A stretch of DNA of 64,000 bases from Candidatus Moraniibacteriota bacterium (GCA_046116545.1 CP175956.1:833734-897733), one strand, 5' to 3'. Counted from the stretch's first letter, positions 32,121-56,978 are shown. The notes: generated from the sequence alone by a model not told the origin. A program made the numbers and translations.

Positions 32121-32792
32121 TTATTTAATCTTCACAGCAGGACTCATTGTTGAACAAATACTTGTATTTGCAACCAACTGTCCTTTATGTGCATCATTTT
32201 TACAACCTTTTATAGCCTCCATGAATGCATTATAATTTTCTACTATTTTCGCTGCATCAAATGATACTTTTCCAATAACTTGATGGATGTTTCCTGTATT
32301 ATCATTTTTGAAGTTAGCTTTTCCTTTTTTCAAAGATTCTACTGCAGCAGCAACATTTGGAGTTACTGTGTCTGTTTTTGGACTAGGCATAAGACCTCGT
32401 GGTCCAAGTACTCTAGCAGCTTGAGCAAGCTTTGGCATCATATCTGGAGTTGCTACCAATACATCAACATCTGGCAATTCTCCACCCTTCATTTTGTCAA
32501 TCAACTCTTGCCCACCAATCAAATCAGCTCCTGCTTTTTTTGCTTCGTCTGCTTTATCTTCTGTTATAACACCTACGCGAACTTCTTTTCCAGTTCCTCC
32601 TGGCAACACAACACTTCCACGAACTGATTGTTCACCTTTTTTAGTATCAATGTTAAGTCGTACATGCAATTCAATTGATTCATCAAATTTAGCACTTGCA
32701 TTTTCTTTTACGAATGCAATAGCTTCTTCAACTGTCATTTCTTCAGTTGCACGTTTTTCTACTGCTGCTTTATAGTTTTTTCCTCTTTTCAT
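32121..32792 (-). CDS. rplA: 50S ribosomal protein L1
   Basis: MKRGKNYKAAVEK...VELHVRLNIDTKKGEQSVRGSVVLPGGTGK is L1 signature sequence. Confidence 0.95.
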   Translation of the reverse strand: MKRGKNYKAAVEKRATEEMTVEEAIAFVKENASAKFDESIELHVRLNIDTKKGEQSVRGSVVLPGGTGKEVRVGVITEDKADEAKKAGADLIGGQELIDKMKGGELPDVDVLVATPDMMPKLAQAARVLGPRGLMPSPKTDTVTPNVAAAVESLKKGKANFKNDNTGNIHQVIGKVSFDAAKIVENYNAFMEAIKGCKNDAHKGQLVANTSICSTMSPAVKIK

Positions 32793-32893
32793 AATACTTT
32801 CGTGGTTTTAACGAATCATCCGACTCTCCCACAAATTATTTAATTAAATACTTTTCAAATTCATCATTCTGAAATTCATTTCAGAATCTTCCT

Positions 32894-33319
32894 TTATTCA
32901 ACTTTGATACCCATTGAACGAGCTGTGCCTTCTACAATTTTCATTGCTCCTTCTACATCAGCAGCATTCAAATCAACCATCTTGATCTCTGCGATTTCTT
33001 TCACCTGATTTTTAGTAACGCTTCCAACCTTATCAGCTAATGGATTTCCCGCTCCTTTTTTCACACCTGCTGCTTTTTTCAATAATTCAGCACACGGAGG
33101 TGTCTTCATTATAAAACTAAATGAACGATCCTCATAAACTGTAATCTCAATAGGAACTATATCTCCCATTTTCTCTTTTGTTGCCTCATTAAATTGAGAA
33201 CAAAAATCTTGAATGTTTATACCATGTTGACCTAATGCTGGTCCTACTGGAGGAGCTGGATTAGCTTTTCCTGCTGGAATTTGCAATTTCAACGTTGTCA
33301 TCACTTTTTTGTCTGCCAT
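32894..33319 (-). CDS. rplK: 50S ribosomal protein L11
   Basis: [27 protein letters not shown] is the L11 N-terminal signature. Confidence 0.95.
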
Positions 33320-33413
33320 AATCTTTCTATAAATAATTAGTAATTCATTAAATGATTTTTTCTATACTTATTCATTTTAGTGCAGTTCAAGGAAAAATGA
33401 ATTATGTATAAAA

Positions 33414-33959
33414 TTATATCTTTGAGATTTGTAAAAAATCAAGTTCCACTGGTGTCTCTCGTCCAAACACCATAACAAGAACTTTCACCTTACCCTTTGA
33501 TTCATCAAATTCTTGAACTTCTCCATCAAAATCCTTAAACGGACCATCTGTAATTTTTATACTTTCACCTTTTTTAACATCAATGCGATATTTTGGTTCA
33601 TCTGTTCCCATCTTCTTCTGAATAGAAAATATCTCTTCTGGGTTAACTGGTGTCGGTGTAGTTCCAAGACCTATAAAACCTGTTACATTTGGAGTATTAC
33701 GCACCACGTACCATGATGCATCTGTTACTACCATTTCTACAAGAACATATCCTGGATAAATCTTCTCTTCAACTGTAACTCGTTTATTATTTCGTATTTT
33801 AATCTTCTTTTCCGTAGGAACAATTACATCAAAAATATAATCTTGCATATCCATTGATTCGATACGCTGTCTCAGATTTTTAGTAACATTATCTTCATAT
33901 CCAGAATAAGTATGTAGCACATACCAAGCCTTTCCATGATGTTGCGTTTGTTTAGCCAT
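33414..33959 (-). CDS. nusG: Transcription termination/antitermination factor NusG
   Basis: NGN domain (KAWYVLHTYSGYEDNV) and KOW motif (KITDGPFKDFDGEVQEFD). Confidence 0.9.
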   Translation of the reverse strand: MAKQTQHHGKAWYVLHTYSGYEDNVTKNLRQRIESMDMQDYIFDVIVPTEKKIKIRNNKRVTVEEKIYPGYVLVEMVVTDASWYVVRNTPNVTGFIGLGTTPTPVNPEEIFSIQKKMGTDEPKYRIDVKKGESIKITDGPFKDFDGEVQEFDESKGKVKVLVMVFGRETPVELDFLQISKI

Positions 33960-33991
33960 AGTAATAAATAATTAGTTGCAAAAAAACTTTT

Positions 33992-34177
33992 TTATTTTAA
34001 GATTACGTCTTTTATAAAACTTCCAAACATATAATCCAATACGCCCAAAAATGCCGCTATCGTAAGACTAATAATAATAACTAGTGTTGTATAGTGAATC
34101 GTTTGTTCTTTGCTAGGCCATGAAACTTTTTTCATCTCACTATATGCCTCTCGCAAAAATTGTGTAATTTTTCCCAT
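33992..34177 (-). CDS. secE: Preprotein translocase subunit SecE
   Basis: 61 aa: FLREAYSEMKKVSWPSKEQTIHYTTLVIIISLTIAAFLGVLD, a single TM helix. Conserved position upstream of nusG. Confidence 0.8.
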   Translation of the reverse strand: MGKITQFLREAYSEMKKVSWPSKEQTIHYTTLVIIISLTIAAFLGVLDYMFGSFIKDVILK

Positions 34178-34326: not shown

Positions 34327-35928
34327 CTATTTCACAATAGGCATTTCTACTATAAACTTTGAACCTTTACCCAGACCATCAGACTCAGCATAAATCCTGC
34401 CGCCCTGTGACTCAACCAGGTTTTTACCAACATATAATCCCAATCCAGTTCCTTCAGTATACATTTTTGTATCATCTGTACCACGAGAAAACTTTGTGAA
34501 TAAACTAGTCAAAGATTCTTTTGATATTCCCACACCAGAATCCTCAATTATAACGCGTAAAATACTTCCATCTTTTTCCATGGATACATGGATGAAACCT
34601 TCTTTTGTATATTTAACAGCATTATCTATCAAATTTGAAATTACTTCCCTCAATTTTGACCTATCAGCTTTTACAGGAGGTGCTTTACCATCTAAAGTCT
34701 TTATGGTTAACTCAAGCCCTTTCTCCTTTGTGCGAAGTATAAACATATCTTCTAACTCTTCCAAAATTCCATCTATTTGCACATCTTCCATATGATACTC
34801 CAATCTACCTGACTCTATACGAGTAATATTCAATAAATCCTCGACCAATTGAATAAGTCTATCATTTGCCAAAAATATCTTATTCAATGCCCCATCTGTT
34901 TCTTCTGTGTTTTTACCATATGCACCTTCAAGTATAAGAGATACATATCCTTTAATCGCTGTAAGTGGTGTGCGCAACTGATGTGATGCAATTGAAATAA
35001 ATTCTGATTTTGCTTTGTCTAGTCTTTTTAGCTCAATGTTCGCTCTTTTTAAATCTTTTGAAGCTTGCTCCAATTTTATTTTTTGCTCAATTTCCTTATT
35101 AATACTTTTTTTCAAAATAAGAGAAATACTAAAAATACCAACGAAAAAAACTGTATTAATAATATATTCTTCTCTTGAGACAGAAACAAAAATACGACTA
35201 AAAACAATAATATTTAATGCTGTTATTAACAAGTTCACTGCCAAAATTCGAGTATTTAATAAATTATACTTTGTAATTGCATATCCAACAATAATAACAA
35301 AAAGAATGCCTGATAAATACGAAAATGGATATACACCAATGGAGTATGCCGGCAAGAAGCCAATGAAACCAATAATGCTAAAATTCAAAAGTCCCACAAT
35401 GATAAATTTCGTTTGTTGCTTTTTATTACCAGTTGCATTTTTATAAAAAGTTACAAGTTGTCTATAAATTTCTAAAGAATACACAAAAAACAAAAAGAGA
35501 AAAATATGATGAAAAATACGAGCCTGTGCATGAACTCCCCAATCATATCTAAAAACATCTTCAATAAAATAATTTGTAAAAGCAAGTGTTAAAAATAATA
35601 TAAAGAAAATAAAATACGACAATACAAGCATTGGTGTTATTTTTTTATTTCCTACAAAAATCATTACAAAATGAAATAAAAAAATTGGAATAAAGATCAC
35701 AAATGAATAAACAACCTTATCCCAAAAAATAATTGCCGCATCCGTATTACCATAAGAAAACAATACAAACGTCCCAAATAACCACCCTGTGACAGAAAGT
35801 GAAAATAGAAGAAAAACAATATTAAGACTTGAAGTCTTGTTTTTACTCCATACGAAAAAGCCAAGCCAAAGCACAAAGAAAGCACTGACAAGAGGAATGA
35901 TTTGAGTAATACTTATTGATGAGATCAT
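34327..35928 (-). CDS. Sensor histidine kinase with polytopic N-terminal membrane domain (orphan, no adjacent response regulator)
   Basis: At least 7 hydrophobic helices, then coiled coil, HisKA H-box ISIASHQLRTPLTAIKGY, and HATPase_c GTGLGLYVGKNLVESQGGRIYAESDGLGKGSKF. Confidence 0.85.
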   Translation of the reverse strand: MISSISITQIIPLVSAFFVLWLGFFVWSKNKTSSLNIVFLLFSLSVTGWLFGTFVLFSYGNTDAAIIFWDKVVYSFVIFIPIFLFHFVMIFVGNKKITPMLVLSYFIFFILFLTLAFTNYFIEDVFRYDWGVHAQARIFHHIFLFLFFVYSLEIYRQLVTFYKNATGNKKQQTKFIIVGLLNFSIIGFIGFLPAYSIGVYPFSYLSGILFVIIVGYAITKYNLLNTRILAVNLLITALNIIVFSRIFVSVSREEYIINTVFFVGIFSISLILKKSINKEIEQKIKLEQASKDLKRANIELKRLDKAKSEFISIASHQLRTPLTAIKGYVSLILEGAYGKNTEETDGALNKIFLANDRLIQLVEDLLNITRIESGRLEYHMEDVQIDGILEELEDMFILRTKEKGLELTIKTLDGKAPPVKADRSKLREVISNLIDNAVKYTKEGFIHVSMEKDGSILRVIIEDSGVGISKESLTSLFTKFSRGTDDTKMYTEGTGLGLYVGKNLVESQGGRIYAESDGLGKGSKFIVEMPIVK

Positions 35929-36026
35929 ATTTTTTTATTTTACATAATTAAGTATATCACATAAAAAAACTGTATTCAAAGTAAAAGCCACTTATTAAGT
36001 AAAATTAATAAGTGGCTTCATCTCAA

Positions 36027-37121
36027 TTACAACACATTACCAAAATTACATTGGGGTGCTGTGACAAACTGAGATTGTTTAAATGCATCTCCGACAATAT
36101 TAATTGCCGGATCATTAACTGTTAAAAACATGTTGCCCTGACTTGAACTATTAGAATATGCAAGTGCCGTAGCTTCACTGAAACAACCAAATAATCGTTC
36201 CTGTGAAAGATTGAGCTGTTTCAAAGCCACACTGGCAATGACAGATCCTGAGTATGCCAAATTGACATTCATCATATTACCTGCATCTTGCCTCGTTACA
36301 AGAATCCCCTCCCTCTTACAATTTTCATATTCTGCACGAGAAAAATTAAATGGCTTACACACATCAATCACATGCACACCTCCATGGTACATAATATCTT
36401 TGATAATCGATTGAGATAATCTAACTCGATGATGATGACTACATGCAACAACAAGTTTTACATCCCTAGCCTCTGCAAATGGATTGTGACCTCTTTGACT
36501 AATCGGAATAATGTTTGTATATCCATTTTCCAACAACTTCTTCCTAATCACAGAACCCAGAAAGCCATTTGGACCAATCACAACAATACCATCATCCTTA
36601 CTTATATCGTTCTTATCTAAAGCAGATCTAACATCTTGCCATAAAGCTATTACTGTACCATTGTCACCAATTGTAAAAATTACACCAGGATGACATGTTG
36701 TGAACTCAGCCAATTCCTGTTTTGAAAATAGGCGTTTGGTCGATGCTCCAAAAAGCACAACTCGCACACCTTTTCTAACAGAATATTTAATCGCTTGTCG
36801 CGCCTGCTTTCGGGCAACTTTCATTCCATCAGTTATCTCACCAGTAACAGGATTTCTATTCATATCCTTGGCTACATTATTAATTGCAATATAGCGACCT
36901 CTTACGTCACCTAATTGTAATTTTAATGCTGGCACAAATGCCTTATCACACCATAATGATGATATACCCATAAAACCTTGTTCAACACTATTGTTGAAAT
37001 TGGTAATATACGCAACATCAAATGAATGATTGGTATTAGACTGCAGGACCTCTTTAATATATACAAAACCACGATATATATCTGAAAGGATCATGAAAGA
37101 AAATTTTAAGAAAATTTTCAT
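36027..37121 (-). CDS. NAD(P)-binding oxidoreductase resembling acyl-ACP reductase (AAR) family
   Basis: Rossmann motif IVVIGPNGFLGSVIRKKL. The pattern TIGDNGTVIA...VVIGPNGFLG...FGCFSEATALAY parallels cyanobacterial AAR (TTGNTHTAY...VVGATGDIGS...FACFAEAMLLEF). Confidence 0.4.
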   Translation of the reverse strand: MKIFLKFSFMILSDIYRGFVYIKEVLQSNTNHSFDVAYITNFNNSVEQGFMGISSLWCDKAFVPALKLQLGDVRGRYIAINNVAKDMNRNPVTGEITDGMKVARKQARQAIKYSVRKGVRVVLFGASTKRLFSKQELAEFTTCHPGVIFTIGDNGTVIALWQDVRSALDKNDISKDDGIVVIGPNGFLGSVIRKKLLENGYTNIIPISQRGHNPFAEARDVKLVVACSHHHRVRLSQSIIKDIMYHGGVHVIDVCKPFNFSRAEYENCKREGILVTRQDAGNMMNVNLAYSGSVIASVALKQLNLSQERLFGCFSEATALAYSNSSSQGNMFLTVNDPAINIVGDAFKQSQFVTAPQCNFGNVL

Positions 37122-37139
37122 TATTTACCTCCTTTTAAA

Positions 37140-37895
37140 TTAGTGTTTTATTTGCTGTACATGATTTGTAAAAACCCATTCAACACCTCTAGTCACTTCT
37201 CTTTGCAAACAATTGCGCGAAGAAATGAATCCTGTGCCGATAGACTGATCAGCTGCACGATGTTTTTGATGAACCTTCTCATTCAACAAAAAATAGTGCC
37301 CTGTTATACCTCCATATCCTTTTGCCAAAGCTAATTCACTCAGCTCAACAACATTCTTTTCTGCAACAGGCAAAAAAGATGCTGACGGCAATTTATCAAT
37401 ACATTCAAATACTCTGGGATGTAGTGATAAAATATGAAATTCTTTACACGATTCAAGTGGCGCCAAATATTCCTGTACACTATGCAAAAAATGCTCATAC
37501 TGATATTCGTATTTTAACTCGATCATCAAATGCATCTTTTTACCATAAAGAGTAACTACCTCAGAAAGTGCTGGAATAAGTGGGACCTCTTTTCTTAATT
37601 CGGCCATTGTCACGTGACTGATCATAATGTCTGCACCAAATATTCTCTGGCAATTTACATCGTGTATTACTACAGGACACAAATCTTTTGTCCATCGAAT
37701 ATCCAACTCTATTCCCCACGCCCCACACTGCATTGCCATTTCAAAAGCTTGCATTGTGTTTTCAAAAACCGAGACATTATCATGAATGCCTCGGTGTGAT
37801 ACGATCTTTGGCACAATATTCTGTACCAAAGATCGTGGACGCAGAGCAAAGTATGTATCAACAAGATTGCAAAGCAATCCATCCACATAACTCAT
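37140..37895 (-). CDS. Glycerophosphodiester phosphodiesterase (GDPD family)
   Basis: IVSHRGIHDNVSVFENTMQAFEMAMQCGAWGIELDIRWTKDLCPVVIHD is the GDPD HR..ENT..AF...G...E.D...T.D...V.HD pattern. The start is taken at the internal MSYVD that abuts the upstream gene stop. Confidence 0.75.
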   Translation of the reverse strand: MSYVDGLLCNLVDTYFALRPRSLVQNIVPKIVSHRGIHDNVSVFENTMQAFEMAMQCGAWGIELDIRWTKDLCPVVIHDVNCQRIFGADIMISHVTMAELRKEVPLIPALSEVVTLYGKKMHLMIELKYEYQYEHFLHSVQEYLAPLESCKEFHILSLHPRVFECIDKLPSASFLPVAEKNVVELSELALAKGYGGITGHYFLLNEKVHQKHRAADQSIGTGFISSRNCLQREVTRGVEWVFTNHVQQIKH

Positions 37896-38635
37896 TTCTC
37901 GCCTCCATTTAGGGTTTTTGCCAATCCTGCAATTTCTTCCATTACAAGATTGGCGCAATCGCTCATGTCTTGTAATTCACAATCTTCATGAATTACTAAA
38001 TTATCAAGAGGCTCTCCAAAGGAAACACTTACTCGACGTTTTTTCAAATTCTCCCATGAAAACATTTTAAATGTCCCATGAAGATACATCGGAATAATCG
38101 GAGCACCTGTTTCTTTTTGCATACATACAACGCCACGCTTCCCCTTTTGCAAGGTCCCGTTTGGACTCATCTTACCTTCCGGAAAGATGAAAACTCGACC
38201 ACCTTGGTTCAAGACTTTTATCGCTGGCGCTAACACGTCTTCGATAAATACTTTGCCAATTTGATCTTTTCGGCGACACTTGATTGGAATGCAAGCACTA
38301 AGCTTTAGCCATACCGACACAAAAATTGATATTGGGAATGGGAATGGCCCAGAAAACTGAATCCATCTAAAGTAATCAGCATAAGCCAAGTACCTAATTG
38401 GTAAAAAATTACCAATCTTAAATCCATTCCACGGCATCGCAATTGCAACAGCTGTAATAACACCATCAAATGGACCATAATGATTACTAGCAAAAATTAT
38501 TGCCTGTCGTGGCGAAATGCCACGCAAACTCTCCTGCCCTCTAACCTCAAATCTAAAAATGACTTTCAAAATAAGGTACAGAGGGAAAAAAACACAAATT
38601 TGAAATAACCTTGCAACTTTTTCTCGTGTGCTCAC
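37892..38635 (-). CDS. 1-acyl-sn-glycerol-3-phosphate / lysophospholipid acyltransferase (PlsC family)
   Basis: HX4D motif FASNHYGPFDGV, and motif III VFIFPEGKMSPNGTLQKGKRG. Confidence 0.8.
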   Translation of the reverse strand: MSTREKVARLFQICVFFPLYLILKVIFRFEVRGQESLRGISPRQAIIFASNHYGPFDGVITAVAIAMPWNGFKIGNFLPIRYLAYADYFRWIQFSGPFPFPISIFVSVWLKLSACIPIKCRRKDQIGKVFIEDVLAPAIKVLNQGGRVFIFPEGKMSPNGTLQKGKRGVVCMQKETGAPIIPMYLHGTFKMFSWENLKKRRVSVSFGEPLDNLVIHEDCELQDMSDCANLVMEEIAGLAKTLNGGEK

Positions 38636-38802
38636 AATGCACCTCCTTGATATTATTTAAAACCTTTAACTTTTATATTATTCTGTAAATGTACTTTAAT
38701 CAAATACTAACATATTTTTATAGTTTTGTAAAGGGATTGTGGACAAAATGATAAAAACATGTAATAATGTAATAAACTACTTAATTTTAATGTAAAAATA
38801 CT

Positions 38803-39546
38803 ATGGACAAAACACTTAAAAAGGACGACTCAATACTACTCATGGAACTAAAAAAACTTGGTTTAACTGAGAAAGAATCTATTTTGTACTTACTTCTTTT
38901 AGATAAAAATGAAGCAACAGCCAGTCAAATAGCATTAATGTCACATATCAGTAGACCAACAGTCTATAGGATACTTGAAGAATTAGAAAGAAAAAACCTT
39001 ATAAACAAAGTAAAAAAAGATAAAAAAACACTTTTTATTGCCACCTCACCAAATACACTTCTTGGACTCTTAAAAATCAAAAAAAAAGAAGCTGAGGAAC
39101 AAGAGCGCGAATTTATGCGTATTATTTCCATGTTGCAAACAACATTTGCCCTCAAAAATAGTGGAAATATCACAAAATTAGATGCCCCAAATAAATTAGA
39201 TATTTTTTTAGATGACCTATTAAATACACCAACAGATAATATTCTTGCATTTTGCAGTAAATCAGAAAATCCCACACAAAAGATTCTTCATGACACTTTT
39301 GTTAAAATACATGAAAGATTCCCAATGCTTACAGTGCACGAAATACGTCATAAATCAACATCAAAACCTACCAGAAGTATGAGCTTTATCAAAACAAAAA
39401 CACTACAATCAACACAAGAAAATTTTTCCATAATAGCTGCAGATAAAGTATTCATCATCACTAAAGACTCTATATTCATCCTTAATCATAAAGAAACAGT
39501 TTTAATAATTAAGTCACTACTAAAAATTTTATGGAACAATCTATAA
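38803..39546 (+). CDS. TrmB-family transcriptional regulator
   Basis: N-terminal wHTH LGLTEKESILYLLLLDKNEATASQIALMSHISRPTVYRILEELERKNLI, typical of TrmB. Confidence 0.65.
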   Translation: MDKTLKKDDSILLMELKKLGLTEKESILYLLLLDKNEATASQIALMSHISRPTVYRILEELERKNLINKVKKDKKTLFIATSPNTLLGLLKIKKKEAEEQEREFMRIISMLQTTFALKNSGNITKLDAPNKLDIFLDDLLNTPTDNILAFCSKSENPTQKILHDTFVKIHERFPMLTVHEIRHKSTSKPTRSMSFIKTKTLQSTQENFSIIAADKVFIITKDSIFILNHKETVLIIKSLLKILWNNL

Positions 39547-39662
39547 TCTTTTACAAGTATCAAAATATCAAGCTTATCTATAGTCAATATTCTTGATTAA
39601 CTTTTTAATATTTGAAGTTTATATGTTATAATATTAATCGTAATAAAATAAAAAGAAAAATT

Positions 39663-40490
39663 ATGAAGAAAATTCTCATGATAGTAGCAGTTTTTTCAAT
39701 GTTATTATCTCCATTTACAACATTAGCATCTCCATCTGGCACGAATACTGACGATATTTATGTAACAGTTAAAGCAAAACAAGGTGGTGAATGGATAACT
39801 GCCTTCAAAGGCAAAACTGACGAAGATAGTGCATTGCGACTTAAGGGTGTGTTGCCAGGAAAGTATAAATTTGAAATAGATGAAGATGATGAAAAAGCTG
39901 GTCAAACACTTGGACTTGAATTAAAAATGAAAGATGAAGATGGAAAAAATATAAAAGAAAAGACTGATGTTGATGCATACATTTATATAGGAGATTCAAA
40001 AGTATTTATAAATAGATTTAGAACAAAAGATAATGGCTACTTAAATCTAGAAGGAATAACTCCTGGAATGACCTATGAATTAAAAGTAAAAGGAGATGGA
40101 AAAGTAAAAAAAGATGAAGGTCTCGCTAGAATGAAGACTAAGACAAAAATAGATGATAGTGATTGGTTTAGTTCTACATATGACTTACTTGATCCAGATC
40201 CAACAGGACTTACAAATGGAATTTTAGAAGTAGAAAATGTATTACCCGGTAAATATAAGTTCAAAGTAAAATCAGGAGATCCTTATGATGCAAGAAAGCC
40301 TTTCATGTTAAAAGCCAGACTGCGTAAAGATAATGGCAAAAAAATCAAAGAACCCACAAAAGTGAGCATCTATGCATATCCTAATAAAATCAAAACAAAA
40401 GTTGGAGAAGTTATGACTGACGCTAAAGGTTGGATACTACTTCCAGAAGTACAACCACATGTTAAATACAGACTTAAAGTAAAGGATTAG
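39663..40490 (+). CDS. Secreted protein with two CarboxypepD_reg/Cna-B-like beta-sandwich repeats
   Basis: Signal peptide MKKILMIVAVFSMLLSPFTTLA. Internal duplication: GVLPGKYKFEIDED... and NVLPGKYKFKVKSGD... A tataat lies at about 39628, inside the longer track ORF that starts at 39612. Confidence 0.5.
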   Translation: MKKILMIVAVFSMLLSPFTTLASPSGTNTDDIYVTVKAKQGGEWITAFKGKTDEDSALRLKGVLPGKYKFEIDEDDEKAGQTLGLELKMKDEDGKNIKEKTDVDAYIYIGDSKVFINRFRTKDNGYLNLEGITPGMTYELKVKGDGKVKKDEGLARMKTKTKIDDSDWFSSTYDLLDPDPTGLTNGILEVENVLPGKYKFKVKSGDPYDARKPFMLKARLRKDNGKKIKEPTKVSIYAYPNKIKTKVGEVMTDAKGWILLPEVQPHVKYRLKVKD

Positions 40491-40508
40491 ATAAAAAATT
40501 TAATTGTA

Positions 40509-40541
40509 GTGACAGAACAATGTTCTGTCACTTTTTTATTT
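40509..40541 (+). terminator. Intrinsic terminator after the 39663-40490 gene
   Basis: gtgacagaac-aatg-ttctgtcac followed by ttttttattt. It shares the TGTAGTG lead-in with the hairpins after LCP and topA. Confidence 0.65.
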
Positions 40542-40621
40542 ATCCTGATATTTAACATATCTTTCATGCAAAATTAAAAGCGGAGGAAAGATTTATCTTT
40601 CACTCCGCTTTTTACTTACAT

Positions 40622-42001
40622 TTAAAACTCCTTTTTAAATATAAGCATTACCCTTGAATCATCCTTGTGAGCACCAAAGATGTCTTCGATACCACTTGAA
40701 TTTGACTCACCATCAATATACTCTCCTCGTACTGTCAAAACAGTATTTTGAAAAAATGCATTCGTAGCCAAACTTGGCAATACAGCATCCAATACAGCCT
40801 CAGCATCTAGACGAAAATAGAAATCATCATCATTTAGACTTTTTGCCATACTTGGTCTGAATGTCACTCCATCACTAGGCGAATATTCTGCCATTGCAAC
40901 AAAATGATTATCAAGTGACCTACGAATATCAAGTTCAGATATTGAAATATCTGAATCATTTGTTGTAAAGCTATTTACATAACCCATCTCAACAAATAAA
41001 CTTGATCCATTTTCAAATTGCCAAATTCTGTCAACTTCTACAATACAAGTTGCAAAGTCATCAGATGACTCTTGAAAGTGTGCATTACAACCAAGTCTTG
41101 TCACCCACTCACCTAGTGTGAGCTCAGCACTTGCTGAAACTGAGGTTTCTTTGACAAAAACTGGAGCAAGTTCAACACCTTTACTTACCACGTGATCAAT
41201 TCCGCTGCCAGATCCATGAAAAATAGCTACTTCAAAAATTGTACCATTATCACGTTCTTGCCACATGCGACATAAATAGTTAACATCACTGCCAACTTCA
41301 ACATCACCATATGACATCCCTGGCTGTAAATCATGAGTCCAATGATCATTTGAACTAGTTGCTATCACTGGATTATTTCTCCCAGCAATAGCACACTCAC
41401 CAAACAAATTTGCGTCTCCAGACAATTTCATGGAGACATTAGCAACAATTACCCCATTCTGAGTATAATCATCCATTGTTGAAAATGGTTCCGATTGATC
41501 ACGACGTGCCAAAGCATTAAATTCTGCAAAATCAAAATTAACTGTATTTTGCATAATCTTTTTACCCAACACAATATTAAGTTCATCCATATTCATATCA
41601 GGAGTAAACTCAACATACATTTCCCGCATGCTCATGATAGTTTTTTTACCATCATGATTATCTAGTGTTGCCCCCTGATAAATATTAGCCGTATCACCCT
41701 GAATACGAACTGAAGCAATAATTGCAACATCTTCCGTTATTTGTGAATCAATACCTATATCAACTCTAACATCTGCAATTATATCATCTTTACCTTTTTC
41801 ATGATGATAAGCAGAAACTCGCGTTTCAATTTCTCCATATACTTCAATTTCCTGTGTAAAAAATACAGGCTCATCAGCATACAAAGCTTCTATTTCTTGC
41901 TTTTTTCTTTTTGAAGCAGCTGCAGAACCACGACTAACCTGAAGTGGCGCACAACTACTCAAAAGAAATGAAAGTAACACAACTAATGAAATATACTTCA
42001 T
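40622..42001 (-). CDS. Hypothetical lipoprotein (459 aa) in MMPL neighbourhood
   Basis: Lipobox LLSSCAP after a signal peptide. C-terminal ...VMLIFKKEF ends in an aromatic residue. No catalytic motif. Confidence 0.45.
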   Translation of the reverse strand: MKYISLVVLLSFLLSSCAPLQVSRGSAAASKRKKQEIEALYADEPVFFTQEIEVYGEIETRVSAYHHEKGKDDIIADVRVDIGIDSQITEDVAIIASVRIQGDTANIYQGATLDNHDGKKTIMSMREMYVEFTPDMNMDELNIVLGKKIMQNTVNFDFAEFNALARRDQSEPFSTMDDYTQNGVIVANVSMKLSGDANLFGECAIAGRNNPVIATSSNDHWTHDLQPGMSYGDVEVGSDVNYLCRMWQERDNGTIFEVAIFHGSGSGIDHVVSKGVELAPVFVKETSVSASAELTLGEWVTRLGCNAHFQESSDDFATCIVEVDRIWQFENGSSLFVEMGYVNSFTTNDSDISISELDIRRSLDNHFVAMAEYSPSDGVTFRPSMAKSLNDDDFYFRLDAEAVLDAVLPSLATNAFFQNTVLTVRGEYIDGESNSSGIEDIFGAHKDDSRVMLIFKKEF

Positions 42002-42009
42002 ATTTCCTC

Positions 42010-42828
42010 CTATCTACCACATGGCAGAGAGCTTTTATTATATGACTTTGGCCAATCATTGAAATTCAGATCTTCATTATCCTGAACTAAATGAGTTCCT
42101 TTTTCTTTAATATCCCAAACAAAAATTTCTGTAGGATACCATTTGCCATCAACATAATCTACTAAAACATTTTCAATTATATAGGAATCAAAATAAATTC
42201 CTTTTATACTAAAATGCTCTTTGTCAATTGCCGCAGTATATCCTGGCAATTTTCCTGTACTTACAGCTTTCACTACGAATACATCAGAAAAACCAAATGT
42301 ATTATCCTCTGTAAACTCATATTTAAATGAATCAGAAGATAATTCAATGCCAGTTTGCATAACCGTCATAGCCCAAGAGCTATTAATGCTACTATCCACT
42401 GTACTGTGTCCTGCTAATGATGTTGTGATACGACGAGCACCCTTACGAGCTAATCGTCCTCTGCAAAAGTATCGAGACGAATCACTCAGATTATCAGGAT
42501 TTAACTTTACAACTAAACCCTTGTTTTTCACCTGCTTCGGAGCAAAGAAATGCAACCAAATGCCATCTTTACCAGAATCATCAAAATACAATGATTGGGC
42601 AAATTGTTTTTCGGCACCTTTCAATGAGTAACATTGTTCGATATCCAAAAAATTATCACATCCATCCCTATATTCATAATCCTGAACACGCCAAAGCGTA
42701 TTTTCTTGTCCAACAATTCGTCGCCCTTGCCAAGTTTTTTCAATAACCTGACGAGCTGTTAATTCCGCAAAGGAATTGATTGGTACAAAAAAACAAATTA
42801 CTAAAACTGCATAAATAATTTTTCTCAT
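42010..42828 (-). CDS. Secreted LolA-like / lipoprotein-sorting-like protein (hypothetical) adjacent to MMPL transporter
   Basis: Signal peptide MRKIIYAVLVICFFVPINSFA. The size, secretion signal and position next to an MMPL/RND gene fit the LolA-like proteins commonly paired with MMPL exporters. This is weak inference. Confidence 0.35.
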   Translation of the reverse strand: MRKIIYAVLVICFFVPINSFAELTARQVIEKTWQGRRIVGQENTLWRVQDYEYRDGCDNFLDIEQCYSLKGAEKQFAQSLYFDDSGKDGIWLHFFAPKQVKNKGLVVKLNPDNLSDSSRYFCRGRLARKGARRITTSLAGHSTVDSSINSSWAMTVMQTGIELSSDSFKYEFTEDNTFGFSDVFVVKAVSTGKLPGYTAAIDKEHFSIKGIYFDSYIIENVLVDYVDGKWYPTEIFVWDIKEKGTHLVQDNEDLNFNDWPKSYNKSSLPCGR

Positions 42829-42882
42829 TTTAATCTCCCTTTTCTTGAATGTAATGGGTGAACATTGTTCACCCATTACAAT

Positions 42883-45339
42883 TTATTTTGACGAACAACA
42901 CCACCGTAAAAACGGTAATGACAGTAAAGTACCCAGATAACAACCTACTAATGCCACTAGAAGCATTAAACCAAGATTAATAATCGGCTTAAATGCCACT
43001 AAAAATGGCATGGCAAGCGGTAAATACGTCAACGCATTAACAAGTACATCAGCACCAGCACGCGTCACCTCGTCTACCATATCATCTGAAACAAGATTCT
43101 TCTCAAAATCCCATCCATATTGTGCAATAACCTGTCTAAATCTCAAAATCAGAAATACAGGCAAATCTGCAGCAGCTGACACAGTAATATTACCAATTGC
43201 AGCCGTAGCAATATCCAAATAAATACCAAACATCATCATAACAATGAGTGTTAAAGTAGTGGACACAACAAACGGAACAATGACAATAGCACCAGCTACA
43301 AGCGGATTGAATCCGCTCACAATGCTAACTCTTCCAATTATCAAAAACAAAATTACACTTAACACACCAATGAGTACAGGAGAACCAACATAGTTCCCTA
43401 TAGCACCCACAGTTATCAAGTCATCTGTTTCTGGATATTGAGCAGTTTTATCAACACCTACGACACCAATATCGCTACCCAAGTCAGCAAGAGCATCCCT
43501 AACATAACGCATGTCACTAGCTTTCGAAGCCAAACCCGTCACATTTATGATGACTGAATTGTCCTCAAGTACAAAGAAATATTTTGACACATTTTCTTGT
43601 GCGACAAGGCCCCACTCTTCTGCAAGCAATTCTTCTACTGAAATTTCAAACTCAGTAGATATCTTGCTAAGAACATCTTCTCTCATACAATCACTTGGTG
43701 AATTACAAAAATCATAAAAATCTCTGTGTAATACATCACCCAGAAAATCAGTTGGAGAAATTATGCCTCGAGCAAAACTATTATTGCGAACATCGCTAAC
43801 AAACTTACTAAGATTTTCAACATCAGTAGCATTGCATAAATCCAAATCTTCTACAAAGATTTTATACAATCCACTACCCGGTTGACCTTCATTTTCAAGT
43901 GAATCCATTACTACACCCGCAGATGTAGCTCGCACAAATGCACCAGGATCACTATCAGTCACAAGCAACTTCATGTTATACAAACCGACTGTAAGCATAA
44001 TTAGAGCCATGACTACCATTGCATTAATGAGCCAACTATATTTTTTGACAGAAAATTTGACAATAGACTGTACAAAAAAAGAAGTCTCCAATTGTGCAGA
44101 TTCTTTGCCAAGTCCGCCCACAAAACAATGTATCACAGGTAAAATTACCCTAGTAACCGGAATAGTAAAAACTACAATAGACACTGTTGCCAAAATAGCA
44201 ACCGTTAACATCGAACGAGCCCCTTCTATGTGTGGCAGTAACATAAATATCAAAAATTCAATACATGTTACTATCACAACAAAATATACGGAACTTTTTA
44301 ATGTATATTCCCTCAAAACAATATTCCAAAAAAATTGTCTATTTGCAAAAATTCTACTAGAAATTCCCTGACTCACAAAACTATACGCCAATGTATTATA
44401 TTCCTTAAAATGCCTCATAAAAAATGAGTAATTCAGCATCATAACTGGAATATAAGCTAATATTGTATATGTTTCCTCATGAAAGGAAAAATTTGTTACC
44501 AAGTCAATTACACCTATAAGTCCACGCATCATCCAAAGGATAGATACATTACAAATAAGTGAAATGAACATTTGTCGGAATGAGCCCAAAATAATCCATA
44601 TGGTAATCGCTGGTAATAATGAACCAACAATGAGTACACTAAAAATGAAAGAGAAACTTTCCTTATTTATAAGTGTACGCCACACGGACCACCCAAATAC
44701 ATCAACTTGAATATTCTCTCCAAAATCAACCTTAGTCAATTTTGTTGACAAACCAAGCCATTTTCTCAAATCATCAAAATACATATCAATCATAACAAAG
44801 TCATGATTATACATAATACTATGAGAAATTTGATACAATTTAAATTCATTCACATCTTGATTTACCGGCATGACCGATATAAAAAAAGAATATTCACCAT
44901 TGTAACTATTCACAAATACATTATTCATGTAATCATGTGATGCTACACTTTCAAACCATTCTTTTCCACTACTGTTTTTGATACTATTTTCTGATAGAAA
45001 ATAATCAACAGGATCAGAGGAATAATCTGTAATTGTTGCAACTGATGCTACATTTACTACTATGTCATTTGCTTCAAAAACAGTCTTAACTCTTTTTGAA
45101 AAATCAATAATAAACTGTCTAGATTTATCAGATAAATTCTTAACAGTTATACGAAATAAAACATCATTAGATAAAATCACATCAGCATTCTTTGCATTTG
45201 ATTGTGCTATAACAAATCTACTTTCATTATTAAGCACAGGCTCCATCAACACACTATCTAAGCGTGTTAACCACAAATTACTATAACTTGCCAAGGCAAG
45301 TACAATAATATAAATACACAAAAATATGTATTTTTTCAT
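42883..45339 (-). CDS. MMPL/RND-superfamily transporter (two 6-TM bundles, each preceded by a large extracytoplasmic domain)
   Basis: 818 aa. N-terminal TM, ~200-aa soluble domain, TM cluster (~aa 230-430), second soluble domain, second TM cluster (~aa 640-810). This is typical MmpL/HpnN topology. Confidence 0.7.
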   Translation of the reverse strand: MKKYIFLCIYIIVLALASYSNLWLTRLDSVLMEPVLNNESRFVIAQSNAKNADVILSNDVLFRITVKNLSDKSRQFIIDFSKRVKTVFEANDIVVNVASVATITDYSSDPVDYFLSENSIKNSSGKEWFESVASHDYMNNVFVNSYNGEYSFFISVMPVNQDVNEFKLYQISHSIMYNHDFVMIDMYFDDLRKWLGLSTKLTKVDFGENIQVDVFGWSVWRTLINKESFSFIFSVLIVGSLLPAITIWIILGSFRQMFISLICNVSILWMMRGLIGVIDLVTNFSFHEETYTILAYIPVMMLNYSFFMRHFKEYNTLAYSFVSQGISSRIFANRQFFWNIVLREYTLKSSVYFVVIVTCIEFLIFMLLPHIEGARSMLTVAILATVSIVVFTIPVTRVILPVIHCFVGGLGKESAQLETSFFVQSIVKFSVKKYSWLINAMVVMALIMLTVGLYNMKLLVTDSDPGAFVRATSAGVVMDSLENEGQPGSGLYKIFVEDLDLCNATDVENLSKFVSDVRNNSFARGIISPTDFLGDVLHRDFYDFCNSPSDCMREDVLSKISTEFEISVEELLAEEWGLVAQENVSKYFFVLEDNSVIINVTGLASKASDMRYVRDALADLGSDIGVVGVDKTAQYPETDDLITVGAIGNYVGSPVLIGVLSVILFLIIGRVSIVSGFNPLVAGAIVIVPFVVSTTLTLIVMMMFGIYLDIATAAIGNITVSAAADLPVFLILRFRQVIAQYGWDFEKNLVSDDMVDEVTRAGADVLVNALTYLPLAMPFLVAFKPIINLGLMLLVALVGCYLGTLLSLPFLRWCCSSK

Positions 45340-45445
45340 TAAACGTACCTCTTAAATTTTATTGTTAAACTACTAAATTTGCCCACAAAATGGACTATTC
45401 ATGATAACAAAAAAACAACCTTTTGTCAAGGCTGTTTTTGCTATT

Positions 45446-45516
45446 TGCACGGGATGAGGGAATCGAACCCCCGACTCAGGTTTTGGAGACCCACGTTATA
45501 CCACTTAACCAATCCC
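45446..45516 (-). tRNA. tRNA-Trp (anticodon CCA), CCA tail not encoded
   Basis: Minus strand reads GCGGGAT..TGGGT-CTCCAAA-ACCTG..GGGGG-TTCGATT-CCCTC-ATCCCGT. Anticodon loop C-U-CCA-A-A. 71 nt. Confidence 0.8.
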
Positions 45517-45568
45517 GCTTTATCTCTCGTATTATCTTACATCTTTTTACTATTTTATTCAAGTCTTG

Positions 45569-45642
45569 AGCCAATGAGCAGAATCGAACTGCTGACCTTA
45601 TCCTTACCATGGATACGCTGCTACCAACTGAGCTACATTGGC
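45569..45642 (-). tRNA. tRNA-Thr (anticodon GGU), CCA not encoded, discriminator U
   Basis: Minus strand reads GCCAATG-TAGCTCAGTTGGTAGCAGC-GTATCC-ATGGTAA-GGATA-AGGTC-AGCAG-TTCGATT-CTGCT-CATTGGC-T. Confidence 0.8.
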
Positions 45643-45693
45643 AAAAAAGAAAACCGAAGATTCTAAACTTCGGCATTTCCCTTACATAATCTG

Positions 45694-45776
45694 TGGGCCG
45701 AGAGGGATTTGAACCCCCGTAGACCGAAGTCGCCTGATTTACAGTCAGGTGCATTTGACCACTCTGCCACCGACCC
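45694..45776 (-). tRNA. tRNA-Tyr (anticodon GUA) with long variable arm
   Basis: Minus strand reads GGGTCGG..CCTGA-CTGTAAA-TCAGG-CGACTTCGGTCTAC-GGGGG-TTCAAAT-CCCTC-TCGGCCC-A. 83 nt, bacterial type-II Tyr architecture. Confidence 0.85.
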
Positions 45777-45807
45777 GATGACTAATATTCTATTATCTGA
45801 ATCACTG

Positions 45808-45880
45808 AGCCACTTGTCAGATTCGAACTGACGACCTGCGGTTTACAAAACCGATGCTCTACCAACTGAGCTAAAGTGGC
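45808..45880 (-). tRNA. tRNA-Thr (anticodon UGU), discriminator U
   Basis: Minus strand reads GCCACTT-TAGCTCAGTTGGTAGAGC-A-TCGGT-TTTGTAA-ACCGC-AGGTC-GTCAG-TTCGAAT-CTGAC-AAGTGGC-T. Confidence 0.75.
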
Positions 45881-51014: not shown

Positions 51015-52271
51015 CTATTTTTTATTCATTGCTATATCATAAATTTTCATAAGACCTTTATAATACACATCTTCATTATTGAATAAATCAACTCGTTTCT
51101 TTGCATTTTCTCCCATTTTTTTTATTAATTCTGGATTTTGTATAAATATCTTCATATATTTTACCAAATTATCACTATTATATGATTCAAATACAAATCC
51201 ACTTTTACCATCTTCAATAATCTCTTTTGTGCCTCCAAGATCTGATACGATTACTGGTGACTTAAAAACCAATGATTCTGATATTGCAACAGGAGCATTG
51301 TCATACCAAATTGATGGTAATACACCAACTGAAGATCTGCTCATTAGTTCCATCCACTCCCCACTGTCTTTTGGATAAAAACCTGTAAACTCTACAACAT
51401 CACTCACATCATTATCACATACATATTCTTTTATCTCATTTTCTTGTGGACCTTTTCCAGCAATAACAAACTTCCACCCATTTAACTCATTAGATTTTTT
51501 TATTTTTTTCATGGCATCTATAGCAAGTTTTAAACCTTTTTCCTCTGATATACGTCCCATAAATAAAAACTCTTTTTTCTTGTTTCCTATTTGTCTATAA
51601 TCATCAAAATTTAATACATTTCTAAGTACTACAATTTTTTCTGCAGAAATACCATATTCAACACATTTATCTTTCATAAATTGACTTGGCGCCAAAAACA
51701 CATCAACGTTATCATAAAAACCAAACCATTTATTTACATACCCCTCAACCATTCCAATAAAACTCTCTCCCCAAGAATCTCCAATTATTTTATTAGTAAA
51801 TAATTTATAATATCTGCCTCCTTTGCAAGAATTATCAACTTTGCCATGTGCAAATAAATGATAATCTGGACATATTACATGATAATCTGTAAGCTCAAAA
51901 ACTATCGGCACACCATGTTTTTTAAATACTCTTAATATCCCAGGTGTCAAATAATGATATATATCATATACATGAGCCACATTTGGTTTTTCATAAGTTA
52001 ATAACTCATCTAGTTTTTTTATAGCGTCTCTATTATAAATAACCTTGGGTACAAGCTTTATTTTTGCCCACAAAGAATGCGCTTCTCGTATATCATAATG
52101 CTTAGCAAAAAATTTCTTATACTCAGTTTTTTCATTTAATTCATCATGCATTGCAAAATTCATTGTCTTATTTCCATACTTTCGCAACAATTTTTCAACT
52201 TCAAAAAGCACAGACACTGCCCCTCCTCCGCGTTCTCTGGTATAATACTTATGTACCTGTAAAATTTTCAT
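51015..52271 (-). CDS. Glycosyltransferase family 4 (GT-B)
   Basis: EEKGLKLAIDAMKKI...KFVIAGKGP and ESLVFKSPVIVSDLGGTKEIIEDGKSGFVFE are GT4 EX7E-type motifs. Confidence 0.8.
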   Translation of the reverse strand: MKILQVHKYYTRERGGGAVSVLFEVEKLLRKYGNKTMNFAMHDELNEKTEYKKFFAKHYDIREAHSLWAKIKLVPKVIYNRDAIKKLDELLTYEKPNVAHVYDIYHYLTPGILRVFKKHGVPIVFELTDYHVICPDYHLFAHGKVDNSCKGGRYYKLFTNKIIGDSWGESFIGMVEGYVNKWFGFYDNVDVFLAPSQFMKDKCVEYGISAEKIVVLRNVLNFDDYRQIGNKKKEFLFMGRISEEKGLKLAIDAMKKIKKSNELNGWKFVIAGKGPQENEIKEYVCDNDVSDVVEFTGFYPKDSGEWMELMSRSSVGVLPSIWYDNAPVAISESLVFKSPVIVSDLGGTKEIIEDGKSGFVFESYNSDNLVKYMKIFIQNPELIKKMGENAKKRVDLFNNEDVYYKGLMKIYDIAMNKK

Positions 52272-52315
52272 AATTGTAATTTCATTACATAATAATCAAC
52301 AATAAATTATAACAC

Positions 52316-53686: not shown

Positions 53687-53697
53687 ATCTAAAAAGA

Positions 53698-54213
53698 TTA
53701 TAAACTCTCTATTTCTTCTTCCAGTAATTTAAAAGTATTTGTAATATCTTCTTTTTGATTTTTACTTATATAATTCTCAAATAATCCATTCTCAAATGAA
53801 CGAACAAATCTATTAATAAAAAGTGGTGTATTTCTTGTATCATCAAAATATTTTATTATCTTATAGTCTGGTGAAAAAAACATATGCACTGTTGTATCCT
53901 CTTGATAAAAACCCGTTTGTTTAGATATATTTAATGCAATTTCCTCCAAGTCTCGCAATGCTACACCAATATCTTCTTTTTCTTGTTTGCTAAATTGCTT
54001 TTCATTTAAAATATCAATATATTCCTCAAAGTCTTTTTGTATTATTTGCAAATCAATAATATTTTTATTCATCTTATTATAATGATCTTCTTGTTCACTA
54101 ACAACAATCATTGAAACATACTCCAAACCATTTTGACACACCAAAGCAACCACAATTGATGTAGTCACAAAACAGACACAAATAAAACTAATTATAAATA
54201 TTTTCTTTTTCAT
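53698..54213 (-). CDS. Hypothetical membrane-anchored protein
   Basis: N-terminal TM KIFIISFICVCFVTTSIVVALV. 171 aa. Confidence 0.35.
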   Translation of the reverse strand: MKKKIFIISFICVCFVTTSIVVALVCQNGLEYVSMIVVSEQEDHYNKMNKNIIDLQIIQKDFEEYIDILNEKQFSKQEKEDIGVALRDLEEIALNISKQTGFYQEDTTVHMFFSPDYKIIKYFDDTRNTPLFINRFVRSFENGLFENYISKNQKEDITNTFKLLEEEIESL

Positions 54214-54301
54214 ATTTCAATGATATCAATTTTTTTCAATAAAAGAAAGAAGTCCTACGATACATTGTATCATAGGACTTCAAGTTAAGACTTCAGGTTA
54301 T

Positions 54302-56727: not shown

Positions 56728-56978
56728 ACCAGTCTCCTTTTTTTGACTTATATATTATTGTTAAAGAAATCTTAACTTTTGCGTAATCAATAAGATTACA
56801 TGAAAATACATATGAAATACATACTTTCATGTAATTTTATAAACAACTATCCATTAATATTTTAACCATCTATTATACTACGAAATTACTTTTTTGTCAA
56901 TAGATAGATTGTTGAAAAAAAGAAAAAAGCGATCTGTGTATACAAATCGCTTTTATGTTATTTACCTATCTATAAATA

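Follow-up and report, generated by a model that had tools for sequence, protein, structure and literature searches.

Why would a bacterium of the Candidate Phyla Radiation (CPR) keep acyl-lipid enzymes, an MMPL-type transporter, a LolA-like protein and a predicted beta-barrel side by side? This question is raised by a stretch of 64,000 nt from Candidatus Moraniibacteriota (CPR/Patescibacteria), which we call the window and which is the only part of this genome that was examined. Between the secE-nusG-rplK-rplA genes and a tRNA cluster, the window carries eight open reading frames (ORFs), named ORF-A to ORF-H here, together with a gene for a seven-transmembrane (7TM) sensor histidine kinase. 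A first-pass annotation, made from the nucleotide sequence, had proposed the eight ORFs and both flanks, and all of them are present. We suggest that the region is one functional envelope-lipid module, in which a lipid with a reduced acyl chain is synthesised or remodelled and is then exported by an MMPL-driven route. Our confidence in this reading is about equal to our doubt. It draws on the gene order and its conservation, on the exchange of one reductase family for another at the same position, and on the family or fold and the catalytic motifs of the proteins.

The neighbourhood is conserved among relatives, whose loci are numbered L001 and onwards here. The genes for ORF-H, ORF-G and ORF-F are contiguous in the window and in five of five distinct loci (L001, L003, L004, L005 and L007; L006 and L008 are the same contigs as L001 and L003 and are not counted separately). 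In L003, which is from another Moraniibacteriota metagenome-assembled genome, and in L005 and L007, H, G and F come first, the genes for E and TrmB follow on the other strand, and those for the acyltransferase, the reductase and the 7TM kinase complete the order, with the L007 contig ending inside the reductase gene. The genomic surroundings of these three modules differ from those of the window, and the L004 module lies at the same tRNA-Trp junction as that of the window. In L010, H and F are found near the acyltransferase, reductase and kinase genes, and a 295-aa ORF between H and F is not confirmed as G. Since the arrangement recurs in independent genomes, it is not due to chance, and a chance gene neighbourhood is ruled out by the synteny. 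The expectation that these genes would prove to be conserved neighbours is borne out, in related as well as distant genomes. The CPR orthologues are 40-60% identical to each other. Because the module is kept at this identity and at different locations in CPR genomes, it has probably been under long-term purifying selection.

The strongest argument for acyl-thioester reduction comes from the reductase slot of these loci. In the window, L009, L010, L012, L014 and L017, the slot is filled by a relative of acyl-acyl carrier protein (ACP) reductase (AAR), which is ORF-A in the window. In L001, L003, L005 and L007, it is filled by a PF07993 protein (NAD_binding_4, the fatty-acyl/thioester reductase type; E 1e-24 to 3e-32). 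The nearest NCBIfam models for these PF07993 proteins are PRK07201 and a thioester-reductase domain, both matched below their cut-offs. The possibility that the reductases of L001, L003 and L005 (392-402 aa) are diverged ORF-A homologues was considered and rejected, as only the Rossmann glycine loop aligns. Thus, the exchange between the AAR-like and PF07993 proteins is best described as a non-orthologous displacement. Because two unrelated families with this shared known chemistry fill the same slot, we suggest that acyl-thioester reduction is the function that has been selected. One ORF of L017 (263-2131; 622 aa) has matches to two proteins of the module, the acyltransferase at E 5e-75 and the AAR-like protein at E 1e-113. 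This ORF could be a natural fusion or could arise from a sequencing error, and since the contig has a frameshifted AAR-like C-terminus, the fusion is weak evidence.

As a single sequence, ORF-A gave nothing above any family cut-off in Pfam, NCBIfam or the PDB. It has 58 homologues, some of which are labelled "predicted amino acid dehydrogenase". When a profile of 38 of these sequences was compared with the PDB, the top match was AAR (PDB code: 6jzu/6jzq) at E 1.2e-9, in two collinear segments; the terminal amidation domain (TAD) was not matched by this sequence profile. In the second segment, the invariant Cys313 of ORF-A (GCFSEA) is aligned with the FACFAEA motif of 6jzu, which holds the catalytic Cys294 of AAR. 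In the Rossmann motif, GPNGFLG, G186 and G189 are invariant and G183 is nearly so. An AlphaFold2 model made from the same alignment is of high confidence (pLDDT 94.4, pTM 0.92). It differs from AAR in having an additional N-terminal helix. When this model was used in Foldseek, AAR (E 1e-13, TM-score 0.64-0.68) and the TAD of CarI (E 3e-13, TM-score ~0.66) were matched; the next matches, to malic enzymes and amino-acid dehydrogenases, are at E 7e-6 or worse with TM-scores <0.4. Thus, ORF-A is not the unrelated dehydrogenase that the first-pass annotation had named as the outcome that would speak against its reading, since it is predicted to have the AAR/TAD fold with the catalytic Cys. The same annotation had described ORF-A as aligning motif for motif with cyanobacterial AAR. 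The fold and the alignment of the catalytic Cys stand, and the closeness does not, as the identity to AAR is only ~14% in the structural alignment and the AAR equivalog model, TIGR04058 (cut-off 449.7 bits), is not matched by ORF-A. For this reason we take ORF-A to be a distant relative of AAR and not an orthologue; an ORF-A homologue from Inhella inkyongensis reaches 22 bits against the same model. TAD and AAR are of common ancestry, with an invariant Cys that accepts the acyl group from the phosphopantetheine of the carrier protein (bioRxiv 10.1101/2024.10.28.620694), and COG5322/AAR-type domains elsewhere have been predicted to convert ACP thioesters to aldehydes (PMC6498172). We predict that ORF-A is an acyl-thioester reductase.

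Two enzymes of glycerolipid type are encoded beside the reductase. ORF-B matches the glycerophosphodiester phosphodiesterase (GDPD) family PF03009 at E 1e-18 (68.7 bits; cut-off 23.6) and aligns with PDB 1o1z (E 2e-12) through the HRG, ENT, ELD and HD motifs. The strong Pfam match is limited to the N-terminal half, and 9f49 aligns over residues 31-250. ORF-C matches the acyltransferase family PF01553 at E 6e-11 (42.7 bits; cut-off 23). Its HX4D and FPEG motifs are invariant across six orthologues (NH-x4-D, F, P and G), the protein has an N-terminal hydrophobic membrane helix, and the sole PDB match of its profile is PlsC of T. maritima (PDB code: 5kym; E 6e-14). The best partial matches in NCBIfam are lysophosphatidylglycerol phospholipase D and the lysophospholipid acyltransferases of the Aas type. 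Thus, the earlier calls of a GDPD and of a PlsC-type HX4D acyltransferase hold, with the catalytic motifs in place. Among the related loci, the GDPD gene is seen only in the window and in L012, and for this reason the GDPD is an accessory part outside the conserved core.

The transporter, ORF-H (818 aa), could be placed only by way of intermediate relatives. Five close, non-identical homologues were found among 5.8 billion proteins, and neither ORF-H, nor these homologues, nor the six-sequence profile made from them gave a direct match in Pfam or the PDB. A scan of metagenomes with the ORF-H profile gave no loci, and a scan of the genome collection gave three. An exhaustive search with the hidden Markov model (HMM) of the six sequences then gave 215 relatives at E <= 1e-3, of which the distant ones match PF03176 (E 7e-9 to 2e-15), and one of these gives a weak match to Sterol-sensing as well. 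A 68-sequence profile matches MmpL4/5 (E ~1e-20), HpnN (E 7e-18), MmpL3, Dispatched, NPC1-related proteins and Patched in the PDB, with the MMPL-type chains 9u4t, 9b46, 6wu0 and 7nvh at E 1e-20 to 6e-11; AcrB and SecD are matched more weakly, and the AcrB-type chains lie far below MmpL. The hydropathy of ORF-H follows the order TM1, a 200-aa loop, TM2-6, TM7, a second 200-aa loop and TM8-12 (TM, transmembrane segment), with the loops predicted to be external, and Asp725 in the second transmembrane bundle is invariant in all 68 sequences. We conclude that ORF-H is probably a very divergent RND protein of the MMPL clade, a placement in which profile drift is possible. The family assigned to it in the first pass is thus recovered through intermediate sequences and not by a direct match to PF03176. 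Neither a membrane-fusion adaptor nor a TolC-type channel is encoded in the module of the window or in any related locus. Because these partners are lacking and the protein belongs to the MMPL clade, a multidrug pump of the AcrB type, which had also been considered, was rejected. In other bacteria MmpL3, MmpL7 and HpnN export lipids made by the products of neighbouring genes.

The two remaining proteins of the H-G-F unit were likewise silent as single sequences. ORF-G, which has a signal peptide, gave no match in Pfam, NCBIfam or the PDB. PF17131 (LolA_like) is matched by three of its five orthologues (best E 4e-6), and a joint profile of 12 ORF-G sequences matches the LolA-like structures 3bk5 (E 3e-19), 9tp6 (E 8e-18) and 4z48 (E 4e-16) in the PDB, the next match being at E 0.69. 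The counterparts from the diderm loci described below align with the ORF-G family at an hhalign probability of 96.5%. The LolA-like call is therefore supported, by orthologues and profile in place of a direct match. For ORF-F, the single sequence gave nothing usable from Pfam, NCBIfam or the PDB. A lipobox is present, which reads LLSSC in the window protein and takes the form L-C-[SG]-C in several of its orthologues, and the protein ends in an invariant Phe. An AlphaFold2 model from only eight sequences has ~18 long antiparallel strands (pLDDT 57.8, pTM 0.55). When this model was used in Foldseek, 242 PDB matches were obtained at E <= 1e-3, and among the matches listed outer-membrane barrels account for 50 of 50; they include porins, AlgE (TM-score ~0.5), OccK and a chitoporin. 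ORF-F is thus most likely a porin-like beta-barrel of the outer-membrane type. Of the earlier description of ORF-F as a lipoprotein, the lipobox stands; a plain lipoprotein does not agree with the predicted 18-strand barrel.

The module also contains control genes. ORF-D matches TrmB (PF01978) above the gathering score (E 8e-16, 58.1 bits; cut-off 25.6), as the first-pass annotation had it, and in L003, L005 and L007 it lies beside ORF-E and is divergent from the acyltransferase gene. ORF-E, with orthologues in the same three loci, has a signal peptide and two repeats of ~130 aa predicted to fold as prealbumin/Ig-like beta-sandwiches, with LPGKYKF occurring twice; Pfam gave weak SpaA and CarboxypepD_reg matches. 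In L005 (6629-7714), the module is otherwise identical but has an additional gene between those for E and TrmB. This gene encodes a PF03060 protein (NMO family), and the family includes FabK-type enoyl-ACP reductases.

The histidine kinase had been listed as an orphan beside the module. Its position is correct, and no response regulator adjoins it in the window; its status as a bystander is not. In L001, L003, L005, L009, L010 and L014, a kinase gene of the same family directly adjoins the reductase gene, whether AAR-like or PF07993, and it is directly adjacent in 28 of the 49 metagenome loci that have both flanks. No other neighbour is linked to the AAR-like gene so consistently, and the kinase is a core part of the module. 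Several further genes were seen next to this kinase. A DUF4153 membrane protein (~613 aa) follows it in L003 (20368-22209) and L005 (12498-13366), and none is adjacent in the window. In L001 (4098-4781) and L010 (13036-13734), proteins of 227-232 aa without a Pfam match are encoded beside it and could be a kinase partner. In the low-GC locus L093 (9268-14148), a CDP-alcohol phosphatidyltransferase gene lies divergently on one flank of the AAR-like gene, and genes for a 7TM kinase and for two response regulators of a single domain come after the AAR-like gene. The setting is thus one of phospholipids and, in contrast to the window, the two-component system is complete.

The core of the module is also found in diderm bacteria. 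Scanning metagenomes with the profile of ORF-A, we obtained 80 loci and searched their ORFs with HMMs of the window proteins. An H-family gene lies directly downstream of the AAR-like gene in 10 of the 66 loci that have a downstream flank. Where the contig continues, the H-family gene is followed by a LolA-like gene and then by an ORF of 400-480 aa ending in LNWQF, LQWFF or LSWRY, which read as typical C-termini of outer-membrane proteins. In the betaproteobacterium Inhella inkyongensis, the order is a GerE-type response regulator, a 7TMR-DISM kinase, the AAR-like protein, an MMPL protein, a PF17131 protein and a 364-aa ORF. The MMPL protein matches the H profile at an hhalign probability of 99.4%, and the 364-aa ORF matches the ORF-F profile weakly (55%). 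More generally, hhalign of the ORF-F profile with the ORFs at this fifth position of the diderm loci is weak (probability 8-55%), and because of this we treat the last ORFs as positional equivalents of ORF-F and do not claim that they are homologues. A different version occurs in L012 (908-14773), where the genes for an acyltransferase, an S-adenosylmethionine-dependent methyltransferase, a GDPD and an AAR-like protein follow one another. This AAR-like protein is 50% identical to ORF-A and is among its closest relatives. The L012 contig has a GC of 47% and is of diderm type; among its genes are kdsB-like, waaA (PF04413), lptA and rpoN, with others for an LptB-like ABC protein and a secretin. 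These surroundings suggest an outer-membrane context. Since such a layout is present on a diderm contig, the module is not an invention of the CPR, and gene transfer between diderms and CPR bacteria is plausible.

The features of the region are collected in Table 1. The overlaps, the short gaps and the positions of the hairpins point to three transcription units, C-B-A, D-E and H-G-F. In an ATGA overlap (37892-37895), the ATG of ORF-B lies on the stop codon of ORF-C, and the intergenic gaps are 18 nt from B to A and 8 nt from G to F. The kinase gene is probably on its own promoter. An operator or palindrome common to the intergenic regions, which would link the three units to the TrmB protein, was looked for and not found. 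The sole element that these regions have in common is the 10-mer GAACATTGTT, which occurs in two hairpins: the one between H and G and the E terminator hairpin at 40508-40532 have a common core, GAACATTGTT(C), in opposite orientation. The G+C content of the module genes (0.32-0.37) is the same as in the remainder of the window, which is ~34% overall.

Table 1. Positions of the module, its signals and its flanks, counted from the first nucleotide of the window
Feature	Position	Strand	Assignment or remark
secE-nusG-rplK-rplA	32121-34177		Bounds the module on one side
7TM sensor histidine kinase gene	34327-35928	-	Pfam HisKA_7TM, HisKA and HATPase_c
Hairpin, 11-bp stem, then T-run	35985-36018	-	Just past the ORF-A stop; probable terminator of the C-B-A unit, from sequence reading
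ORF-A	36027-37121	-	NAD(P)-binding enzyme of AAR/TAD fold (predicted), COG5322-type
ORF-B	37140-37958 (probable ATG at 37895)	-	GDPD
ORF-C	37892-38635	-	PlsC/LPLAT-family acyltransferase
AT-rich divergent promoter region	38636-38802		Between the C-B-A and D-E units; promoter-like sites only
ORF-D	38803-39546	+	TrmB-family winged-helix regulator
ORF-E	39612-40490 (probable start 39663)	+	Secreted, prealbumin/Ig-like repeats
Terminator hairpin of E	40508-40532		Between the convergent genes E and F
Second terminator hairpin	40576-40613		Between the convergent genes E and F
ORF-F	40622-42001	-	Lipobox-bearing, predicted porin-like beta-barrel
ORF-G	42010-42876 (probable start 42828)	-	Secreted LolA-like protein, PF17131 clade
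Hairpin, 14-bp stem, without T-tract	42850-42880		Between H and G; may be an attenuator or processing site
ORF-H	42883-45339	-	Divergent MMPL-clade RND transporter
Promoter-like site TTGACA-17-TATCAT	45401-45429	-	Upstream of ORF-H; consensus match only
tRNA cluster Trp-Thr-Tyr-Thr	45447-45880	-	Bounds the module on the ORF-H side

Outside the module, five ORFs of the window (1489-2790, 24705-25634, 54302-55687, 55684-56727 and 57607-58950; 309-461 aa) have no Pfam match at E <= 1e-5, and three of the five are inside a polysaccharide cluster that is described below. A further ORF of 455 aa (28248-29615) has a weak partial match to ThyX (PF02511) over residues 10-197 and is about twice as long as the Thy1 model (191 positions).

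In the scheme proposed here, we infer what the substrate, the acyl donor and the product are, which way transport runs and where the barrel is located. In the biosynthetic arm, C-B-A, ORF-C would act as a membrane-anchored PlsC-type acyltransferase, and ORF-B, translationally coupled to it, could supply glycerol-3-phosphate or lysophosphatidate from phosphodiesters or lyso-lipids. ORF-A would accept the acyl chain of an acyl-ACP or acyl-CoA thioester on Cys313 and set it free by reduction with NAD(P)H, yielding an aldehyde. The product of this arm would be a glycerolipid, newly made or remodelled, with a chain derived from a reduced acyl group, for example an ether (alkyl or alkenyl) or a derivative of a fatty alcohol or of an aldehyde. 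ORF-H, powered by the proton motive force, would then extract the lipid from the cytoplasmic membrane and hand it over to ORF-G, a secreted carrier, which could deliver it to ORF-F, a putative porin-like beta-barrel lipoprotein at the cell periphery. For control, the TrmB-type regulator would be co-transcribed with the secreted Ig-like protein, and the membrane-embedded 7TM kinase is a probable sensor of membrane or lipid status.

No description of this cassette was found in the literature searched (Patescibacteria MMPL lipid; MMPL/LolA-like/acyltransferase; PF17131/TP0789), and we have compared it with known systems part by part. AAR (6jzu; TIGR04058; COG5322) has the same two-domain fold, Cys and Rossmann glycine motif as ORF-A. 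It differs in that the module lacks the aldehyde-deformylating oxygenase partner, and ORF-A is tied instead to an acyltransferase, a 7TM kinase and an MMPL protein. The CarI TAD (PDB code: 9e4s) is an equal structural match and has the invariant Cys beside the nicotinamide site. Free-standing TAD homologues form a cluster of their own (bioRxiv 10.1101/2024.10.28.620694). However, TADs are mostly fused to the termini of nonribosomal peptide synthetases (NRPS), their chemistry is itself unproven, and the module is without NRPS or polyketide synthase (PKS) genes.

The MmpL/HpnN exporters share with ORF-H the topology of 12 transmembrane segments and two loops, and their genes adjoin those for the enzymes that make their cargo. 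They differ from ORF-H, which has no MmpS partner and is accompanied by a LolA-like protein and a predicted barrel. In ether-lipid systems, a fatty-acyl reductase (PF07993 in ElbD of Myxococcus; FAR1) is paired with a PlsC-type acyltransferase (in ElbD; eukaryotic FAR1 with GNPAT). The module is similar in combining an acyl-thioester reductase with an acyltransferase of the AGPAT/PlsC type, and PF07993 also occurs in L001, L003 and L005. It differs in that an AGPS-like alkyl-dihydroxyacetone phosphate synthase, an FAAL and an ACP domain were not found in it. We regard the resemblance to ether-lipid systems as a lead.

In the aryl-polyene (Ape) gene clusters, ApeD (a lysophospholipid acyltransferase), ApeM (RND) and ApeL (LolA-like) have been proposed to attach and export aryl-polyene lipids (PMC8253772). 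With ApeD, ApeM, ApeL and ApeN, these clusters combine an acyltransferase with RND/MMPL and LolA-like proteins as the module does, in their case as proteins proposed to put a special lipid into the outer envelope, a likeness of logic only. They differ in their type II PKS genes and DUF3261 LolB-like protein, none of which is found in the window or related loci, and the module has in addition a predicted porin-like barrel at its end, a thioester reductase, a GDPD and a 7TM kinase. In Thalassolituus oleivorans, TOL_3187 (a fusion of MMPL and LolA-like domains) and the adjacent porin TOL_3188 are induced on a C28 alkane used as growth substrate, and uptake was proposed (PMC6304351). The three functions of H-G-F occur together there and are linked to long-chain aliphatics; the comparison is one of function, and it differs in concerning an alkane-induced system of a diderm gammaproteobacterium. 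Because TOL_3187 fuses the MMPL and LolA-like parts, we suggest that ORF-H and ORF-G cooperate physically. Overall, the best reading is that the module resembles the lipid export loci of the MmpL and Ape types, with a combination of parts of its own.

Several points weigh against synthesis and export of a reduced-acyl lipid. No member of the AAR-like clade has a known substrate or product, ORF-A does not match the AAR equivalog, and the TAD, an equal structural match, has been proposed to amidate and not to reduce. The PF07993 proteins of the reductase slot also resemble sugar epimerases and lie below the thioester-reductase cut-offs. When the broad H profile is compared with the PDB, siderophore exporters (MmpL4/5) come out on top. 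In the diderm cassette, no acyltransferase is adjacent, so that not every version has this step. For ORF-F, the confidence of the model is no more than moderate, at the pLDDT given above. In addition, an outer-membrane barrel has no obvious home in this organism, because CPR bacteria are regarded as monoderm (bioRxiv 10.1101/2021.05.31.446380) and the window encodes a wall-polymer ligase of the LytR_cpsA_psr (LCP) family.

These points leave room for other explanations. The first-pass annotation saw in the region a system for lipid scavenging, remodelling and trafficking. In such a scheme, the barrel, the LolA-like protein and the MMPL protein would bring host lipids or long-chain aliphatics inward, the GDPD and the PlsC-type enzyme would trim and re-acylate lysolipids, and the AAR-like enzyme would interconvert aldehyde and acyl forms. 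CPR genomes are small and no fab genes are present in the 64-kb window; the translational coupling of the GDPD to the acyltransferase suits the salvage of lyso- or deacylated lipids, as do the partial NCBIfam matches of these two enzymes, and the alkane-induced fusion and porin of Thalassolituus offer a precedent for import. We nevertheless consider scavenging somewhat unlikely. Characterised RND proteins of the MMPL/HpnN type export, and the MMPL protein, LolA-like carrier and co-encoded biosynthetic enzymes fit synthesis and export better. A reductase is not needed for salvage, and the GDPD is confined to the window and L012. Moreover, diderms such as Inhella, which live freely and have full lipid synthesis, also have the core of reductase, kinase, MMPL, LolA-like protein and barrel, so that this core is not an adaptation to a reduced genome.

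The equal match to the TAD and the siderophore exporters at the top of the H-profile matches speak for a different proposal, that the AAR/TAD-like enzyme amidates or reductively releases a carrier-bound acyl or peptidyl intermediate of a specialised metabolite, with the MMPL protein exporting the lipophilic product and the kinase sensing it. The close linkage of the kinase would suit a signal molecule, and in L011 the AAR-like gene lies beside genes for a FeeM-type N-acyl synthase, a methyltransferase and a thiamine pyrophosphate-dependent enzyme. However, neither the window nor the CPR loci have genes for an NRPS, a PKS or a carrier protein within or close to the module, ORF-A matches AAR and not TAD by sequence profile, its partners are of glycerolipid type (the PlsC family and the GDPD), and in L093 the AAR-like gene is paired with one for a CDP-alcohol phosphatidyltransferase, so that we find this proposal quite improbable. 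It is also conceivable, and in our view very improbable, that the module is a diderm island, taken up recently by horizontal transfer beside the tRNA cluster, that does little or nothing for the CPR cell and has yet to be lost. Its site between tRNA-Trp and secE, the similar layout around the ORF-A relative on the diderm contig L012 and a barrel that seems out of place in a monoderm would agree with such an origin. Against it, all of the ORFs are intact, the GC is that of the rest of the window, and several CPR genomes have retained the module, with the identities given above and at different locations, with L004 at the same tRNA junction. Thus, synthesis of a reduced-acyl lipid followed by its export remains the reading that we prefer.

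The barrel raises a question of its own. Besides the LCP ligase (3295-4914), the window contains a polysaccharide cluster (51015-60937) with two glycosyltransferases, a Wzy_C O-antigen-ligase-like protein and a Wzz protein, and these are usual features of a monoderm-type wall. The LolA-like carrier and the predicted barrel are nonetheless apparently kept under purifying selection in several CPR genomes. Either the model of the barrel is wrong, or the barrel works in an outer layer that has not been recognised, or it works in the membrane of a partner cell. It may even be that some Moraniibacteriota maintain a diderm-style, trans-envelope lipid conduit made of the MMPL protein, the LolA-like protein and the barrel and fed by the acyltransferase/reductase operon, an idea that we regard as unlikely. 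If true, it would mean that these cells have an unrecognised outer lipid layer, or that they insert the barrel into the membrane of a partner or host and pass lipids from cell to cell.

The findings describe a cassette conserved across phyla, consisting of a 7TM kinase, a reductase of the AAR family or PF07993, an MMPL protein, a LolA-like protein and a predicted barrel; the CPR versions have a PlsC-type acyltransferase as well. They also indicate that CPR proteins without Pfam matches can be assigned when profile searches are iterated exhaustively and read together with synteny. The large COG5322 group of AAR relatives outside the cyanobacteria, so far labelled "predicted amino acid dehydrogenase", gains a testable role in the biology of envelope lipids. 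Since the cassette is present in Inhella inkyongensis, a named species for which a genome assembly of 4 Mb exists, this bacterium is a possible entry point for experiments, provided that it can be grown and manipulated. For the CPR bacteria, organisms not yet grown alone, the module raises the question of how their envelope is built and how they handle lipids.

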